Origin: an uncultured Methanomassiliicoccales archaeon
GTDB taxonomy: Archaea > Thermoplasmatota > Thermoplasmata > Methanomassiliicoccales > UBA472
Reading direction: 5' to 3'
NCBI GenBank assembly: GCA_963695345.1
Contig: OY968769.1
Span: 1,824,001 to 1,888,000 of the forward strand
DNA length: 64,000 nt
Shown: one piece after another, positions 1,642 through 26,868 of the stretch
Layout of the letters: each line of letters opens with the position of its first letter
How positions within the stretch are numbered: position 1 is the first letter of the stretch
Position numbers and translations under genes: made by a program
The notes under the pieces: generated by a model
The model's input: the letters and a program-made list of their open reading frames with translations, nothing else
Database searches by the model: none
What the model was told of the DNA's origin: nothing

Positions 1642-2058
1642 ATGAGATTAAGATTGTACACCGATGGCGGGTCTAGGGGAAACCCCGGTCCTTCGGCTTA
1701 CGCATTCATCCTAATGTCCGAGGACGGCAAGACGATCCAAGAGGGCTCCCACTTCCTCGGCAAGGCCACCAACAACGAGGCGGAATATAGCGGTCTGCTC
1801 GCTGGACTGGCCGCGGCCCGGGAGAAGGGCGCCGATGAGATCGAGGTGACCATGGACAGTGAACTGGTGGTCAGGCAGATGCAGGGCATCTATGCGGTCA
1901 AGTCCCCCAACCTCATGCCTCTCTACAAAGAGGCCAGGTTGAGATTCTCAAGTTTCAATAAACCCGTGATCCTTCACGCCCCTAGGGAACACCCCGTCAT
2001 CACGAAGGCAGATGCGCTGCTGAACGGGGAGCTCGATCGGTGTACAAAGCGCAAATGA
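1642..2058 (+). CDS. rnhA: Ribonuclease HI family
   Basis: YTDGGSRGNPGP, TNNEAEY, DSELVVRQ. Confidence 0.92.
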   Translation: MRLRLYTDGGSRGNPGPSAYAFILMSEDGKTIQEGSHFLGKATNNEAEYSGLLAGLAAAREKGADEIEVTMDSELVVRQMQGIYAVKSPNLMPLYKEARLRFSSFNKPVILHAPREHPVITKADALLNGELDRCTKRK

Positions 2059-2118
2059 ACGCCATTCGCGGCAACAGTTATTTCTAACTGACAAAACCAA
2101 GCTCTATCGGTGATAGAA

Positions 2119-2316
2119 ATGGTTCAGAAAGTGATAGAGATAGTTGGGATATCGAAGAAAGGATTCGATGAGGCTGCCAAGAACGCGATAGAAACTGCTG
2201 CGAAAACCGTGAGGAACATACAATGGGCCCGCGTTTCGGAATTCGAATGTAAGTGCGGGGAAGGAGAGATCGTTGATTTCAGAGCTCTTGTGAGGATATA
2301 CTTCGACGTTGATTGA
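2119..2316 (+). CDS. Dodecin family protein
   Basis: KVIEIVGIS..GFDEAAKNAI..AAKTVRNIQW, 65 aa. Confidence 0.88.
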   Translation: MVQKVIEIVGISKKGFDEAAKNAIETAAKTVRNIQWARVSEFECKCGEGEIVDFRALVRIYFDVD

Positions 2317-2513
2317 AGGACTTCTATCGTGATCAATTTGATCTTGGCCAACGTAGGTCATGGATCCTAGAAGGAGACCAACTGCTATTGGACTTCAGAT
2401 AGCATGGGCGTTTTTCTTGTTCATGCCATGCAATCACCATTCGGTTCGCTGGATCAACGAAATTTGAACGAATAGAAGAATAACCGGGAATATTTTGTTA
2501 TAGTAATAAAATA

Positions 2514-2521
2514 TTTATATA
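2514..2521 (+). promoter_or_regulatory. TATA box for putative sRNA copy 1
   Basis: A-rich tract then TTTATATA about 20 nt upstream of the structured element; no sense CDS downstream. Confidence 0.6.
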
Positions 2522-2539
2522 AGATGGCGAATCGTCGGT

Positions 2540-2624
2540 TTGGCGTGCGGGGCCCGGTGACTCAACTGTCCTCCTAAGATCAGTTCTTCAATACTCCCCC
2601 AATAAATCCGGTCCCCGGCGCCAA
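2540..2624 (+). ncRNA. Putative structured sRNA, copy 1 (anti-SD-like loop family)
   Basis: Terminal stem TTGGCG..GGGG.CCGG / CCGG.CCCC..CGCCAA; inner hairpin AACTG/CAGTT with CTCCTAA loop; 32/36 core identity to the reverse complement of 23826-23905. Confidence 0.7.
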
Positions 2625-2627
2625 GAT

Positions 2628-3875
2628 TCATTGTCGCAGAAGTTCGACCAGGTCATTGTTCTTTACCAATGACTGTTCTCCTGAGCTCATGTCCCGCAGA
2701 GTGACCGAACCTGCTTCCTCTTCCTTTTCGCCAACAATGATGGCATAACGGGCACCGATCGAATCGGCATATTTGAAATTCTTGGCCAGGTTGCGCCTCA
2801 TGAGATCTATGTCGGCGACGATTCCGGATTCCCTCAGGTTAGCCACGATTGTGAATGCCCGTACACGCATCTTTTCATTGACCGGGATGACGTAGACCTG
2901 AATGCCGGTCTTCGGGGATATCATTCCCTCGCGTTGTAAGGCAAGAAGTATCCTGTCGAATCCGATCCCAAATCCACTGGAGAATACCTTTTCCCCTCCG
3001 AAAAGCTCTGACAGCGAATAGGAACCGCCACCGCAGACCTGTTTCTCCGCACCTAGCGAGGGGGCGTCTGCTTCGAACACCATACCAGTATAGTAGGCTA
3101 GTCCCCTCACCACGCCCAGGTCGACAGAGACGTTGGTGAATCCATAGGCGTTCAGGACCGCAAAGACCTGTTCAAGATGTTCCTTGGCCTCACCCGAGAA
3201 CCCGTCAAGGACCGACGTCGGGCCCGTTATCTGAGTGGTCCTGATGACGTCTTCAGCGGTCTCTTCGCTCATACCTGCCTCTTTCATGATCGGACGGGCT
3301 TCATCGTAGAGCTTCTTATCCAATTTTTGAAGGATCTTCAGCATGTCATCGGGTTTGACGCCAGCCGACGCTAGCTTCGAACGCAATATCCCGATGTGAC
3401 CGACCCTGATCTTGTAGTCCTTCAATCCGGTCCGCTTGATTATTGAAGCGGCCAAACCAATGACCTCAGCGTCAGATTCCGGAGTGGGGGCCCCGATCAG
3501 TTCGGCCCCGAACTGAAAGAACTCACGATAGCGGCCGGATTGGGGCCTTTCGTACCGGAAGCACTGCCCGAAGTAGAACATCTTGAGCGGCCGTGGATAG
3601 GTGGTAAGATCGCTCAAGAAGAAACGGATGACCGGTGCGGTGAGCTCAGGCCTCAGGCAGATCTCGCGATCGCCCTTGTCCTTGAAAGCGTACATCTCAT
3701 CGACGATGCCCGGGCCGGATTTGATAACAAAAAGGTCAGTTGTTTCGAAGATCGGGGTGGAGACCTCGCGGAATCCATGGGTCCTGGCGACATCCCTCAT
3801 GAGCGATTCGAAGTACCTCCTCGTTTCCATCTCCTCGGGGCCGAAGTCCCTCGTCCCGCGCGGCCGCTGAATCAT
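2628..3875 (-). CDS. hisS: Histidine--tRNA ligase
   Basis: RGTRD, LRPELTAP, FRYERPQSGRYREF, RGLAYYTG, GFGIGFDR. Confidence 0.97.
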   Translation of the reverse strand: MIQRPRGTRDFGPEEMETRRYFESLMRDVARTHGFREVSTPIFETTDLFVIKSGPGIVDEMYAFKDKGDREICLRPELTAPVIRFFLSDLTTYPRPLKMFYFGQCFRYERPQSGRYREFFQFGAELIGAPTPESDAEVIGLAASIIKRTGLKDYKIRVGHIGILRSKLASAGVKPDDMLKILQKLDKKLYDEARPIMKEAGMSEETAEDVIRTTQITGPTSVLDGFSGEAKEHLEQVFAVLNAYGFTNVSVDLGVVRGLAYYTGMVFEADAPSLGAEKQVCGGGSYSLSELFGGEKVFSSGFGIGFDRILLALQREGMISPKTGIQVYVIPVNEKMRVRAFTIVANLRESGIVADIDLMRRNLAKNFKYADSIGARYAIIVGEKEEEAGSVTLRDMSSGEQSLVKNNDLVELLRQ

Positions 3876-22427: not shown

Positions 22428-23753
22428 TCACTTTTCCCACGGAAACCTCTTATCCATCATTTTACTGAGGATTTCTTCGAATCCGGGCATGAGCAGTTCC
22501 CGGTGGTCGAAGACCTCTGTCTCTTCCATCTTTCTGAAAGCATTGCCCAATGCCGCGTCTTTGAATTTGTTCTGTAACAGTTTCGCCGCGTTGGGATTCT
22601 CTCGGTGGGCCAACACCGCCCATCTGCCGTCCTTGATGAAGGGGAGGCTTGCCCCCTCCTCTTGCCATCGTTCCAGGAATTTCACGGAATTCCCTACCCA
22701 GACCGGCGGGCCCATGTGGAGCGCGCATTCCGACAGTGTATCGGTCTCAAGCATGATGGCGAACGCTATCTTATCATCGACCAGATAAGCTTGGTCTATG
22801 ACATTGAACCCGTGTTGGGCCAGCAATCCGGCCAGTCCATCCATTGTCTTCTGGACCTGGGGATAAAGATTGTCATCGGTGAGGTCTGGACGAGGGGTCC
22901 TTATTCCAACGACCTTTGTCCCGAATCCATCTATCATGTTTACCAGATGATGCAAGGAGAAAGGCTCTCCCGGTTCTGGAAGGAAGAATCGCCGGTCCTG
23001 TTTTTTCGAATATTGCTGGCATGCGTAAACATAGGTGGCGAACGAGTTCGCCGACAAAGCGGAAGCCACGTTCCTGTTCGGGTCTACCGGGTCTATGAAT
23101 ACTAATGGGGAATTGAAGCTTTTTTTAGACTCTCCCGCCATAGAAAGGGCCATCCCCGAAGACCAGATCGCCCCCTCCTCGATAGTCGTTGAGAAGCTGC
23201 CGTATCTCAGTATGAGAAGCTCGGCAAGGTAGCCTGAGAAACCACAGACCTTAGCATCGGCCCCATAGACTCCAACTCCTTTCATGAACTGTTTCAATAG
23301 GCGGACATGGTCATGTTGCTCTGGTTGTAGGTGAGTGACTACATACTCGGTATGGAAAGGGGTCCTGTCCACCGCCGATTTGATATGCGAGGCGTCAGGC
23401 AGTTTATAACACGGAACAAGGTCCACCTGAAATCCTTTGAACAAACCATGGATGTACGGGTGTTCCGCATATCTTTCTTCCCCACCGATGACCTTGTGGC
23501 CGATTTCAAGGCCAACCTTTTCAAGCGTCGATCTAGGAGTATCTTTTGGGAATAGAATGAACACGTCGATGTCCGGATCGCCTACAAATGTGTCCTTGGC
23601 TACTGAACCGACGAGTCGAATATCGAGATCAAGAGGATATGTCGATGCAACCTCCCCCACTATGGTCATTAGATCTGAGGAGGCTTTGTTGACTCTTTCC
23701 CGGAGAAGACGGTCAGGAACGACGGCCTTCAGCATCTCTTTTTCTATTGACAT
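22428..23753 (-). CDS. cca: Archaeal class I CCA-adding enzyme
   Basis: GSVAKDT...DIDVF, YAEHPY, VDRTPFH, GFSGYLAE, DPVDPNRNVA. Confidence 0.96.
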   Translation of the reverse strand: MSIEKEMLKAVVPDRLLRERVNKASSDLMTIVGEVASTYPLDLDIRLVGSVAKDTFVGDPDIDVFILFPKDTPRSTLEKVGLEIGHKVIGGEERYAEHPYIHGLFKGFQVDLVPCYKLPDASHIKSAVDRTPFHTEYVVTHLQPEQHDHVRLLKQFMKGVGVYGADAKVCGFSGYLAELLILRYGSFSTTIEEGAIWSSGMALSMAGESKKSFNSPLVFIDPVDPNRNVASALSANSFATYVYACQQYSKKQDRRFFLPEPGEPFSLHHLVNMIDGFGTKVVGIRTPRPDLTDDNLYPQVQKTMDGLAGLLAQHGFNVIDQAYLVDDKIAFAIMLETDTLSECALHMGPPVWVGNSVKFLERWQEEGASLPFIKDGRWAVLAHRENPNAAKLLQNKFKDAALGNAFRKMEETEVFDHRELLMPGFEEILSKMMDKRFPWEK

Positions 23754-23825
23754 TCCCTCCTCTATCAATTGACATCGGCTTAATGTTTTATGTTAAAAAA
23801 CACTAGAGAACCATGCAATTCTATT

Positions 23826-23905
23826 ATGGTATCCGGGACCGATGTGGTGGGGATTCGAAAAACTTTTCTTAGGAGGAAAGTTGAGTCACCGGACCCGAAC
23901 ACCAT
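23826..23905 (-). ncRNA. Putative structured sRNA, copy 2
   Basis: 12-bp terminal stem ATGGTGTTCGGG/CCCGGATACCAT; inner hairpin AACTT/AAGTT with CTCCTAA loop; paralog of 2540-2624. Confidence 0.7.
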
Positions 23906-23926: not shown

Positions 23927-23934
23927 ATATAAAA
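23927..23934 (-). promoter_or_regulatory. TATA box for putative sRNA copy 2
   Basis: TTTTATAT about 21 nt upstream of the stem, matching copy 1 spacing. Confidence 0.6.
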
Positions 23935-24658: not shown

Positions 24659-25444
24659 ATGATTGACATATCTAGTGTAAACTACGACATGGTCTTTAAG
24701 CGCTACGACATACTCGTAGAGGCTAAAGAGAAGCCAGAAGACATCGCGGCTAAGATCTTGCCGAAGGACGCGTTGCTGAAGAAAGTCGCTGAAGACGTTG
24801 TTTTCATGAAGTACAAGGACGTCGAAGCGGATGTAAAAGCAGCCTTGGCCAAGTTTAGCCCCGAAGAGCTAGTCGAGAAGGGACTCCTGAAGGGAATGGA
24901 TGTCGTCAGCGAGCTGTACGGAAGGGGTATCTACTACCTGCCGCACGTCATGGTCGCCGCCGACGCATTCGACAGGGGAATCAAGCTCGCCGAGAAGAGC
25001 ATGAAGGGAGACCGCGTCATGAAGGGCAACGTTGTCATGATGGTCGCCGAGGGTGACCCGCACGACATCGGCAAGAACATTGCAGCCGTCATGCTAAGAT
25101 CCCACGGATACGGAGTCGTCGACATGGGCAGAGATGTTCCAGTTGATGATGTTGTGAAGCAGGTCGAAGAGAGCAAGCCGGACCTCGTAACCGGAACCGC
25201 ACTCATGACCACCACCATGTCCGCATTCCCGAAGGTTGCCGAGAGGCTCATCGAGAAGGGAATAGAGATCCCGTTCATCTGCGCCGGCGGTGCAGTGAAC
25301 AGGTCATTCGTAGAGTCCTACCCGCTCGGTATCTACGCCGTTGCAGCAGCACAAGGCCCTGGACTTGCCGACAAGGCAATCGAAGGCTGGGACTGGAAGA
25401 AGATTCGCTCCAAGTGGGACGACATCACAAGCGGGAAGGCGTAA
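24659..25444 (+). CDS. mtaC: Methanol corrinoid protein
   Basis: EGDPHDIGKN B12 motif, GTALMTTTM, GGAV; directly upstream of mtaB. Confidence 0.94.
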   Translation: MIDISSVNYDMVFKRYDILVEAKEKPEDIAAKILPKDALLKKVAEDVVFMKYKDVEADVKAALAKFSPEELVEKGLLKGMDVVSELYGRGIYYLPHVMVAADAFDRGIKLAEKSMKGDRVMKGNVVMMVAEGDPHDIGKNIAAVMLRSHGYGVVDMGRDVPVDDVVKQVEESKPDLVTGTALMTTTMSAFPKVAERLIEKGIEIPFICAGGAVNRSFVESYPLGIYAVAAAQGPGLADKAIEGWDWKKIRSKWDDITSGKA

Positions 25445-25461: not shown

Positions 25462-26868
25462 ATGGCAGTAAAGAGATTCACAAAGATGGAAACGAAGAGC
25501 GCGGACGACCTCGTCTTCGGTGACGCGAAATACCCGGTATCATACGGTCTCGGAATGAAGGCCGGTGCGGGATTCGTCGTACCAGAGATCAACTTCGCCC
25601 CAAGGCCCGGCGCTGAGAAGAACCCGGACACCCTGAGGCGCGAGTACGTCGACTACATCACCAAGGACATAATGGACAGGGCAGTAACCCTCGGTTTCCC
25701 AGCAGTTCAGCTGGAGAACGAGTGGATCTACCAACTCGGCAACGAGCCAGAAAAGTTCGCCAAGCCAGTTGTCGCAGGCCAGAAGGAGTGCATGAAGAAG
25801 TACCACGATGAGTACGGCATTGCAACCGCCATCAGGCACACCCTGCCTGACATGAGAGAGGCCGAGAAGGGCCTGAGGGAAGGCATGGACAAGAAATCCT
25901 CCTACCCGGAGAAGGTCATCGAGTCCATCGAAGTCGCAGCCAAGAACGGCGCCGATGTGCTCTCGATCGAATCCATGGGTGGCAAGGAAATGTCCGACTA
26001 CGGTATCCTGCACCAGGATATCCGCGCATGGCTCTTCGGTATCGGCTACCTGGGCTCCATCGACATGGAGTACATGTGGACCAAGATCGTGGACATCGCC
26101 AAGAAGAACAAGGTCATCGCCGGCGGAGACACAAACTGCGCAGGCGCCAACACCTCGATGTTCATGGCCGGTGGCTACCTGGACAAGGATATCCCGAGGA
26201 CCTTCGCGGCTACAACCCGCTGCATCGCTTCCGCCAGAACCCTGGTGGCAATCGAGTGCGGTGCAACTGGCCCGGACAAGGACTGCGGCTATGAAGGCCC
26301 GATCCTGAAGGCAATCTCTGGACGCCCATCCGCCCAAGAGGGAAAGGGAGCCCAGGACGCACATGCTGACCTGATGGGTAACCTGATCGCCTCGACCTGC
26401 GACCTGTGGTCCAACGAGTCGGTTGAATACCACCCAGAGTTCGGTGGCTCATCCGTACAGTGCTGGCTCGGAGTCATAGGATACGAAGCCGCCTTGATGA
26501 ACACCGCCAAGCAGCTGAAGCAGGACAAGGTCCTCAGGGACTTGTACGCAGCCTGTGACTCATACAGGAGCCCGGAAGGCTTCTGCCTGAGGTACGACAA
26601 CGCCTACAAGATCGGTGAGGCAATTGTCGCAGAAGGCGACAGCACCTACCTGCGGTCAAGGGCAGCCGGTATCAAGGCAGCCGAGTTGATCGCGGAGTCC
26701 GCCAAGACCAAGAACGGCCTGAAGCTCTCCAAGCACGAGAGCGACATGCTGAACAAGGTCATGACCGACCTGAAGGCCCTGCCGGACGAGGAAGCCAAGT
26801 TCGTCGACCAGTGCCTCAAGGCCTACAAGGACGTCCAGGCGTTCAACCCGAAGAACTACGAGTTGTAA
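25462..26868 (+). CDS. mtaB: Methanol--corrinoid protein methyltransferase
   Basis: PEINFAPR, SIESMGGKE, GDTNC, GPDKDCGYE, CDLWSNES. Confidence 0.96.
   Translation: MAVKRFTKMETKSADDLVFGDAKYPVSYGLGMKAGAGFVVPEINFAPRPGAEKNPDTLRREYVDYITKDIMDRAVTLGFPAVQLENEWIYQLGNEPEKFAKPVVAGQKECMKKYHDEYGIATAIRHTLPDMREAEKGLREGMDKKSSYPEKVIESIEVAAKNGADVLSIESMGGKEMSDYGILHQDIRAWLFGIGYLGSIDMEYMWTKIVDIAKKNKVIAGGDTNCAGANTSMFMAGGYLDKDIPRTFAATTRCIASARTLVAIECGATGPDKDCGYEGPILKAISGRPSAQEGKGAQDAHADLMGNLIASTCDLWSNESVEYHPEFGGSSVQCWLGVIGYEAALMNTAKQLKQDKVLRDLYAACDSYRSPEGFCLRYDNAYKIGEAIVAEGDSTYLRSRAAGIKAAELIAESAKTKNGLKLSKHESDMLNKVMTDLKALPDEEAKFVDQCLKAYKDVQAFNPKNYEL

Follow-up and report, generated by a model that had tools for sequence, protein, structure and literature searches.

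To our knowledge, few of the small RNAs of archaea are conserved beyond a single genus, and almost none has a known mode of action; two of the described examples, sRNA154 and sRNA41, are known from the genus Methanosarcina. Long-lived synteny between an RNA gene and a protein gene is known from proteobacteria, where the gene for 6S RNA (ssrS) lies upstream of ygfA. Three lines of published work bear more directly on the locus described here. First, the C-rich tracts of RsaE-type small RNAs are described in PMC6158497 as pairing with G-rich Shine–Dalgarno (SD) regions. Second, sRNA154 and sRNA41 of Methanosarcina mazei are presented in PMC5867862 as intergenic RNAs whose masking of ribosome-binding sites is either proposed or demonstrated. 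Third, according to PMC4477674, CCA-adding enzymes, including those of class I, take acceptor-like terminal stems, with a preference for A at the position preceding the CCA.

We analyzed a stretch of 64,000 nucleotides from the genome of a Methanomassiliicoccales archaeon (hereafter the window) and found that it carries two paralogues of one RNA gene, here called copy 1 and copy 2 (Table 1). Both elements are best read as genes of one structured small-RNA family of about 80 nt, each independently transcribed, with transcript ends as presumed below. Our analysis showed that this family is real, previously uncatalogued and clade-restricted, though wide, and comparison of its members settled its gene anatomy, structure, conservation and synteny. 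The sequence-only reading of this DNA had put forward a multicopy small-RNA family with an anti-SD-like loop, based on 32 identical positions out of 36 between the copies. The identity holds, following the DNA pattern CCGGTGACTCAACT[G/T]TCCTCCTAAGA[TC/AA]AGTT[C/T]TTC, and the pattern of the 26-nt shared core matches the window twice, compared to zero matches in 100 dinucleotide shuffles. The word multicopy was an overstatement: there are no copies beyond these two in the 2.56-Mb genome, as judged both by a pattern search allowing up to 3 mismatches and by a covariance model.

Table 1. Positions in the window of the two RNA genes, their parts and the neighboring genes (paired segments are joined by "with").
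Feature	Position	Strand	Remarks
rnhA-type RNase H-like gene	1642..2058	+	Pfam RVT_3, RNase_H; upstream boundary of the rnhA–RNA–hisS locus
TATA-like box of copy 1	2513..2521	+	ATTTATATA
Copy 1 RNA	2542..2623	+	hisS-linked divergent paralogue ("type A")
Copy 1 P1	2542-2557 with 2608-2622	+
Copy 1 P3	2564-2568 with 2581-2585	+
Copy 1 CCUCC	2570-2574	+
Copy 1 second C-rich tract	2594-2600	+	CUCCCCC
Copy 1 unpaired A	2623	+
26-nt shared core, copy 1	2554-2579	+
hisS, histidyl-tRNA synthetase	2628..3875	-	Pfam tRNA-synt_His 1.5e-56, HGTP_anticodon
cca, class I archaeal CCA-adding enzyme	22428..23753	-	Pfam NTP_transf_2, tRNA_NucTransf2, CAA_C
Presumed cca promoter	23779..23793	-	ACATAAAACATTAAG; kept in the genus (7 loci)
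U6 tract, likely terminator of copy 2	23795..23800	-	27 nt after the helix
Copy 2 RNA	23827..23903	-	cca-linked archetype
Copy 2 unpaired A	23827	-
Copy 2 P1	23903-23891 with 23840-23828	-
Copy 2 inner pairing	23890-23887 with 23844-23841	-	GGUG with CAUC
Copy 2 second C-rich tract	23852-23846	-	CCCCACC
26-nt shared core, copy 2	23867-23892	-
Copy 2 P3	23882-23876 with 23868-23861	-
Copy 2 CCUCC	23876-23872	-
TATA-like box of copy 2	23927..23934	-	TTTTATAT

The finer structural comparisons drawn between the two copies at the outset also stood up. The inner stem shows a G-C to U-A exchange (AACUG/CAGUU in copy 1, AACUU/AAGUU in copy 2); the outer stems, unlike in sequence between the copies, keep their pairing in both, as seen by direct reading and in the dot-bracket structures; a pyrimidine–pyrimidine mismatch sits at the same helical position (C.U in copy 1, U.U in copy 2); and a second C-rich tract follows on the 3' side in both. 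Each copy folds into a long hairpin closed by end-to-end pairing, with a free energy of -31.1 kcal/mol for copy 1 (2538-2624; z = -3.43, with 2 of 200 shuffles equally good) and -29.2 kcal/mol for copy 2 (23826-23905; z = -4.04, with none of 200 shuffles equally good). Scored against the covariance model of the family (R1, built from a seed of 18 sequences), copy 2 reaches 95.8 bits (E ~2e-20) and copy 1 43.7 bits (E 8e-08), the E-values here and below being rough, as they come from a shortened calibration. Copy 1 has orthologues in the same place in all 6 of the other genomes of the genus that hold the locus. The two paralogues have diverged in this genus, and copy 1 lacks CCACC. In genome G020 the two paralogues differ by 2 nt only, which suggests selection or gene conversion acting on the RNA product.

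The conserved core of the family is a closing helix, P1, of 17 bp in the model and 13–17 bp in individual members, from which a loop domain of about 45 nt is held out. Among 51 distinct sequences, 96.3% of the P1 cells were paired, in an alignment fitted to the model, which favours structure. Both sides change in 12 of the 17 pairs, with RNAalifold in agreement; none of 500 shuffles reached any of five measures, and pairing fell to 40–53% in controls in which the partner was slid by 1–3 columns. The diversity of the helix can be seen by eye in stems such as GGUGUCUGAGGUC, GAAGUCCGAGGUC and CAAGAAUCCGAGGCUG, and in families f10 and f30 it takes the form of 7 bp, an internal loop and 8 bp. This strong covariation bears out the proposal that the elements are structured RNAs. 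It also comes with information on the strand: G.U pairs are frequent in P1 (for example, in 25, 17 and 15 sequences at three of the pairs) and would read as C.A mismatches on the other strand, and members score 60–99 bits against the model in the forward direction compared to 14–31 bits in reverse, which together fix the RNA strand. The inner hairpin, P3, is a weaker feature, its modelled pairs being paired in only 70–78% of cases. Compensation is seen within subfamilies (AACUG/CAGUU, AACCG/CGGUU, AACUCU/AGAGUU, AUCGAU/AUCGAU), and the minimum-free-energy folds vary between lineages, such that a single consensus structure for P3 could not be fixed.

The loop domain is weakly structured and features the almost invariant stretch CUCAACUYUCCUCCURAG, a short U tract and AUCCCCACC. 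CCUCC is present in the apical region of 124 of the 126 distinct members, while the stems vary; the remaining two, both from genus g2, have no CCUCC at all and retain AUCCCCA[CA]C. All 18 sequences of the seed alignment share AUCCCCACC without variation, and it is found in most of the cca-side copies as well as in many of the hisS-side copies outside the window's genus (the two genomic settings are described below). Within that genus the hisS-side copies feature CUCCCCC or AAUCCCCC in its place, and variant C-rich tracts are also found in several hisS-side copies elsewhere and in one cca-side copy (L153). The hisS-side copies of family f6 display a second CCUCC. The CCUCCUA of the loop equals the terminal anti-SD core of this organism's 16S rRNA, whose 3' end reads ...GGAUCACCUCCUA.

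Each copy had been credited with a TATA box of its own, and this is the case: the TATA-like boxes begin 25–29 nt before the first paired base. Across the family, 40 of 50 distinct members have such a box starting 25–31 nt upstream of P1 by pattern, and the other 10 have similar boxes by eye. As this is the usual archaeal spacing, transcription probably begins at the first bases of the helix, which are GG in 46 of 50 distinct members. The base following the helix is an A in 31 of 50. Termination is predicted for copy 2 at its U6 tract, by the oligo-U rule for archaeal termination; more generally, a run of at least four T occurs within 30 nt downstream in 17 of 50 distinct members, and in 24 of 50 no such run is found in the first 60 nt. 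The proposal of two sibling RNAs, independently promoted and structured, is supported.

Comparisons with the catalogues agreed with the sequence-only reading, which recognized no matching family. Both copies and four relatives were searched against Rfam 15 (4227 models) at E-value limits of 1 to 10, and no relevant match was recovered; a hit to a human lncRNA model (12.9 bits) was attributed to chance. At the Rfam gathering threshold the whole window yields one tRNA-Pro only (62217-62291). We considered and rejected several specific identities. A tRNA is not indicated, as ARAGORN reports nothing at either copy and RF00005 gives no match at E <= 10; neither is a missing tRNA-Arg(CCU), for the genome has a canonical one; nor is a T-box leader, because the RNA is convergent with hisS rather than upstream of it and the Rfam T-box model does not match. 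In the literature searched we found no published description of the family, and the main text of Borrel et al. 2014 (PMC4153887) lists only Rfam-derived non-coding RNAs.

Relatives across the order were recovered by BLASTN, and covariance model R1, run on a sample of the order, gave a match in 81 of 151 genomes. The distribution by family is sharply divided: the RNA is found in 41/46 genomes of f1, 1/1 of f2, 4/4 of f3, 10/10 of f5 and 24/24 of f6, with no match in f4 (0/1) and f7 (0/64). In a sample of the class, 29 of 151 genomes had a match, adding f10 (15/15), f13 (10/10) and f30 (2/2), with none in 25 other families; in a sample of the phylum, matches were limited to 2 of 151 genomes, namely that of the window and one other of its family, and in that sample the model did not find the RNA in the other classes of the phylum. 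Thus, among the genomes sampled, the RNA occurs in five of the seven families of Methanomassiliicoccales and in three more families of the class Thermoplasmata. Genomes of the order usually have two copies, and those of f10, f13 and f30 have one each. Across 185,579 species, each represented by a single genome, the exact 19-mer GCTCAACTTTCCTCCTAAG was recovered at 56 loci, every one of which lies in a metagenome-assembled genome labelled Thermoplasmata, Methanomassiliicoccales, Sysuiplasma, Thermoplasmatota, or broadly archaeal or euryarchaeal. The RNA has been lost from most of family f7, where a scan of 16 cca loci with filters off gave one diverged look-alike upstream of cca (L085, 2863-2936; 15.3 bits, E 0.24).

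We tentatively favor the reading that this is a trans-acting, C-rich, anti-SD-like small RNA. Transcription would start at the first G of the 13–17 bp helix made by the ends of the RNA, or at a neighboring base, and this helix would serve as a scaffold holding out the loop domain, whose sequence selection appears to keep. The exposed pyrimidine tracts would pair in trans with G-rich, SD-like stretches of mRNAs and, by analogy to the C-rich-motif small RNAs of Firmicutes and the Methanosarcina small RNAs that mask ribosome-binding sites, may block access of the ribosome or alter mRNA stability. Expression of the RNA would be physically coupled to cca and hisS by gene position, with any read-through extending over the promoter of cca and the hisS-side copy probably antisense to the 3' UTR of hisS. 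Several observations point in this direction. The retention of exposed pyrimidine tracts on a covarying scaffold suggests either a base-pairing seed or a protein-binding site. SD motifs before the long ORFs of this genome (3,099 ORFs) peak at positions -15 to -9, with 96 at -12 against a background of about 16, which indicates that SD-led initiation is used; taken with the 16S-like CCUCCUA and the doubling of CCUCC in some paralogues, this argues for an anti-SD small RNA. Multiplication of motifs, like the second CCUCC of f6, is known among C-rich small RNAs.

Searches for partners of the loop returned generic sites. In this genome we found no mRNA site able to pair with the loop more extensively than a plain SD would: allowing up to 3 mismatches, the complement of the 17-nt loop occurs at 7 sites, two of which are the antisense of the elements themselves, and neither wobble-aware patterns nor RNAduplex run across the whole genome turned up an outlier among the SD-type sites. 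For the best duplexes of parts of the loop with 16S and 23S rRNA, 5–13 of 30 shuffled queries did as well or better. With RNase P RNA, RNAduplex yielded long spurious duplexes for the loop, none better than those of shuffled controls. A specific pairing with the GAGGAAAGU-type region of RNase P RNA was rejected, as this genome has GAGGAAGUU and only about 7 bp are possible. The invariant 18–19 nt are longer than an anti-SD seed needs, suggesting a specific partner, be it a protein or a defined RNA. The two members of genus g2 that do without CCUCC also speak against an anti-SD role, as do the seemingly leaderless neighbor genes described below. Further, a generic small-RNA function leaves unexplained the synteny with genes of two tRNA-end enzymes, which is kept across orders.

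That synteny, which together with the order-wide spread was absent from the sequence-only reading, holds for every member that could be placed. Of 126 distinct copies, 74 lie directly upstream of cca on the same strand, 45 abut the 3' end of a convergent hisS, and 6 occupy the same rnhA–RNA–hisS spacer with 330–850 nt inserted before hisS, giving 51 hisS-type loci, at which rnhA is found together with hisS. The one remaining copy is at a contig end and could not be classified; thus, all 125 classifiable copies are at two syntenic sites, and their orientation with respect to both neighbors is invariant across members. The three families outside the order contributed cca-side copies only, at loci where Cca is only 35–42% identical; hence, the cca-linked position is ancestral, and the hisS-linked copy was gained within the lineage of Methanomassiliicoccales.

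Both neighbors are single genes in this genome, with no second cca or hisS. The start codon of cca, an ATG at 23753 preceded by GAGGAGGG, is 74 nt downstream of copy 2. Across the 74 cca-side loci, the distance from the end of the helix to the ATG is 37–154 nt (median 73), an AT-rich, TATA-like box before the ATG peaks at 29–35 nt, and SD-like tetramers precede cca in 16 loci, with none in the other 58; the box and the scarcity of SD tetramers suggest that the cca mRNA is separate and mostly leaderless rather than co-transcribed with the RNA as its cis-regulatory leader. In genus g2 the helix ends just 45–55 nt from the ATG, and the TATA-like box of cca lies a few nucleotides past the helix. 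On the other side, the stop codon of hisS is about 5 nt from the 3' end of copy 1, and in 44 of the 45 abutting loci it is 5–28 nt from the RNA 3' end, taking the end of hisS from tblastn, the exception being L128 at 223 nt. Given this tight packing, a transcript reading past the RNA would pass over the promoter of cca or become antisense to hisS, a possible coupling in cis. The hisS mRNA likewise looks leaderless, with a TATA-like TTAATA about 22 nt before its ATG. Since both cca and hisS look leaderless, they are not obvious SD-type targets of the RNA. Pairing in cis of the anti-SD sequence with cca was rejected as a general explanation, being possible only in the window's genus by way of the sequence before the ATG.

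Such linkage calls to mind the enzymes themselves. In what we regard as an unlikely but serious alternative, the RNA mimics a tRNA end: its terminal helix and unpaired A would imitate an acceptor end, and the RNA would engage Cca, the product of the adjacent gene, as a substrate, decoy or regulator, and possibly HisRS as well. The position of the cca-side copies, the persistence of the linkage outside the order with so diverged a Cca, and the fact that the other 51 classifiable copies face hisS are in keeping with this, as are the GG start, the A after the helix and the 7 bp, internal loop and 8 bp of f10 and f30. In addition, copy 2 contains CCUCCUAAG and UUCGAAUCCCC in tRNA order, as does the genome's own tRNA-Arg(CCU), sharing with it a hairpin loop and a T-loop-like stretch, and the loop CCACCA is complementary to a 5' (U/C)GGUGG. 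Against it, the RNA is without a cloverleaf, with ARAGORN and the Rfam tRNA model silent as noted above, and the covariation describes a continuous rod of 13–17 bp with no D or T arms. In the hisS-side paralogues the 7-nt anticodon-like loop gives way to one of 5 or 9 nt; UUCGAAUCC is restricted to a single genus; a pyrimidine-rich tail, unlike a tRNA trailer, follows on the 3' side; and CCACC has been lost from the hisS paralogue of genus g1.

A more specific form, to which we assign a low probability, would make the RNA a dedicated partner of the adjoining CCA-adding enzyme: an acceptor-stem-like hairpin (GG, terminal helix, unpaired A) tagged or held by Cca and carrying the ribosome's anti-SD as its loop. 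If such a partnership were true, it would couple tRNA 3'-end repair to translation initiation or to maturation of the 16S 3' end, the hisS-side copy would bring in the charging of tRNA-His, and archaea would have their first example of an RNA that regulates or senses tRNA-end metabolism.

The same spacing could be read without a main role for the RNA in trans, an explanation that we consider rather improbable. The gene would then be mainly a cis-acting unit, whose strong promoter reads through and occludes the weak leaderless promoter of cca and, at hisS, produces a transcript that collides with the 3' end of the gene or is antisense to it; the folded RNA would be chiefly a stability or termination module. 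The short distances in g2 and at the abutting hisS loci, the often weak or absent T-runs past the RNA and the invariant orientation with respect to both neighbors all fit. Nevertheless, such a unit needs neither 18–19 nt of loop sequence that stay invariant across orders nor the same sequence at two unrelated loci, and the near-identity of the G020 paralogues also counts against it.

A further alternative, which we judge to be very unlikely, turns on the 16S-like loop: acting as a sponge for proteins or as a mimic of the 3' tail of 16S rRNA, the CCUCCUA would bind a factor of the anti-SD end, candidates being Dim2/Pno1-type KH proteins, Nob1 and initiation factors. The motif is indeed identical to this genome's 16S 3' end, a long invariant loop suits recognition by a protein, and an archaeal Dim2-like protein was reportedly crystallized with a 16S rRNA 3'-end fragment (Jia et al. 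2010; PDB 3AEV). Yet the identity to 16S spans only 7 nt, and the locus has no gene for such a protein. Finally, a MITE- or REP-like mobile repeat, suggested by the closing helix being an inverted repeat at the DNA level, or a chance similarity, has a negligible probability: there are two copies per genome at fixed syntenic sites, each copy has a TATA box to itself, the G.U pairs distinguish the strands, compensatory changes occur, the shuffles gave zero expected matches, and neither copy is flanked by the direct duplications that the sequence-only reading had named as the mark of such an element, so that a mobile repeat is excluded.

The RNA family is unusual for its spread through several orders of Thermoplasmata, with methanogens from gut and wetland among its carriers, for an architecture backed by covariation and for an exposed anti-SD sequence. 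Its linkage to genes for two enzymes of the tRNA acceptor end offers an entry into post-transcriptional control in a poorly studied order of methanogens, and covariance model R1 is ready for use in genome annotation.

Set beside the described systems, the family most resembles, in kind, the RsaE/RoxS- and LhrC-type RNAs, which are likewise small, independently transcribed and equipped with several unpaired C- or CU-rich tracts on hairpins; the hallmark of the RsaE/RoxS type, at least two conserved unpaired C-rich tracts with varying stems, is found here too. No similarity of sequence or model to these RNAs is seen in Rfam at E <= 10, and, unlike the Firmicutes C-rich small RNAs, this family is archaeal, has a TATA promoter, is strictly linked to cca or hisS, pairs its ends into a long rod instead of ending in a terminator hairpin, and conserves a stretch of 18–19 nt. 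With sRNA154 and sRNA41 it shares an archaeal, intergenic origin and no detectable homology; in contrast to them it spans several orders, and its C-rich tracts may mask ribosome-binding sites. The mascRNA-type and other acceptor-like CCA substrates are comparable in the GG-start terminal helix with an unpaired A after it, here encoded beside cca and joined by a hairpin loop identical to that of tRNA-Arg(CCU), but the present RNA lacks a cloverleaf and both the T and D arms, is missed by tRNA models and is presumably a primary transcript from its own promoter rather than a product of RNase P or RNase Z. Like 6S RNA, it is a small rod-shaped RNA whose gene is kept upstream of one housekeeping enzyme gene; it differs in structure and presumably in partner, the Rfam 6S models do not match, and, in distinction to ygfA, the downstream cca seems to have a promoter of its own. 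By analogy, then, the family would join the C-rich, anti-SD small RNAs, unless its link to Cca is functional, in which case it would be something new.

The two conserved tracts of this RNA family, CCUCC and the C-rich tract, do not share a common fate. In genus g2, the RNA is found in shortened versions of about 68-72 nt (loci L157, L180, L162, L163, L178 and L181), and two of these, the cca-side copies L157 (genome G031) and L180 (genome G002), entirely lack CCUCC. The C-rich tract is still present in both, since L157 keeps GAAUCCCCACC and L180 has GAAUCCCCAAC. Copy 1 of the window shows the opposite pattern, having lost CCACC. Either tract can therefore be lost without the other. The family f6 hisS-side paralogues with a second CCUCC (UUUUCCUCCGAAUCCCCACC; L121, L123, L126, L019, L027 and others) have three pyrimidine tracts per RNA.

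In nearly all members a U3-U6 tract that resembles an Sm site follows the CCUCC hairpin and precedes the CCCCACC tract. Oligo-U is a ligand of archaeal Sm-like proteins.

The cca-side and hisS-side paralogues of genome G020 differ at just 2 nt, unlike the two paralogues in the window's genus, which differ widely. Either gene conversion or a recent re-duplication may thus have taken place in family f5. In family f7, where the RNA is mostly lost, a diverged look-alike lies upstream of cca in a single genome (G132) among the 16 examined; it combines a perfect closing helix of 12 bp with a UCUCCUCCUUUGAG loop and with AUCCCCUUCCC. The remaining 15 have no look-alike upstream of cca; in some of them the upstream gene extends right up to cca.

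Just upstream of copy 2 lie genes for a corrinoid protein with B12-binding domains and the methanol:corrinoid methyltransferase MtaB, a pair consistent with a methyl-reducing methanogen. In several f1 and f6 genomes, too, the corrinoid gene is a neighbour of the RNA. Copy 1 is separated from the RNase H-like gene by an 85-aa ORF without a Pfam match, which recurs at the same position in five other genomes of the window's genus (38-49% identity).

Positions of the features discussed (C1, contig of the window's genome)
Feature	Location	Strand
U3-U6 tract (example)	window 23863-23857	-
85-aa ORF	window 2104-2361	-
Corrinoid protein	window 24659-25444	+
MtaB	window 25462-26868	+
G020 cca-side paralogue	L015 1003-1083	-
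G020 hisS-side paralogue	L038 504-584	-
f7 look-alike	L085 2863-2936	-
tRNA (ccga)	C1:2430787-2430884	
16S rRNA	C1:639735-641204	
23S rRNA	C1:591455-594384	

Outside the window, ARAGORN, which counted 34 tRNAs in the genome when run without intron handling, reported a tRNA of 98 nt whose anticodon (ccga) has four bases and which is assigned to 'Arg|Ser'; an archaeal tRNA that contains an intron is the likeliest explanation. The 16S and 23S rRNA genes also lie outside the window, and the same observation as for these genes is described for Methanomassiliicoccales by Borrel et al. 2014 (PMC4153887).
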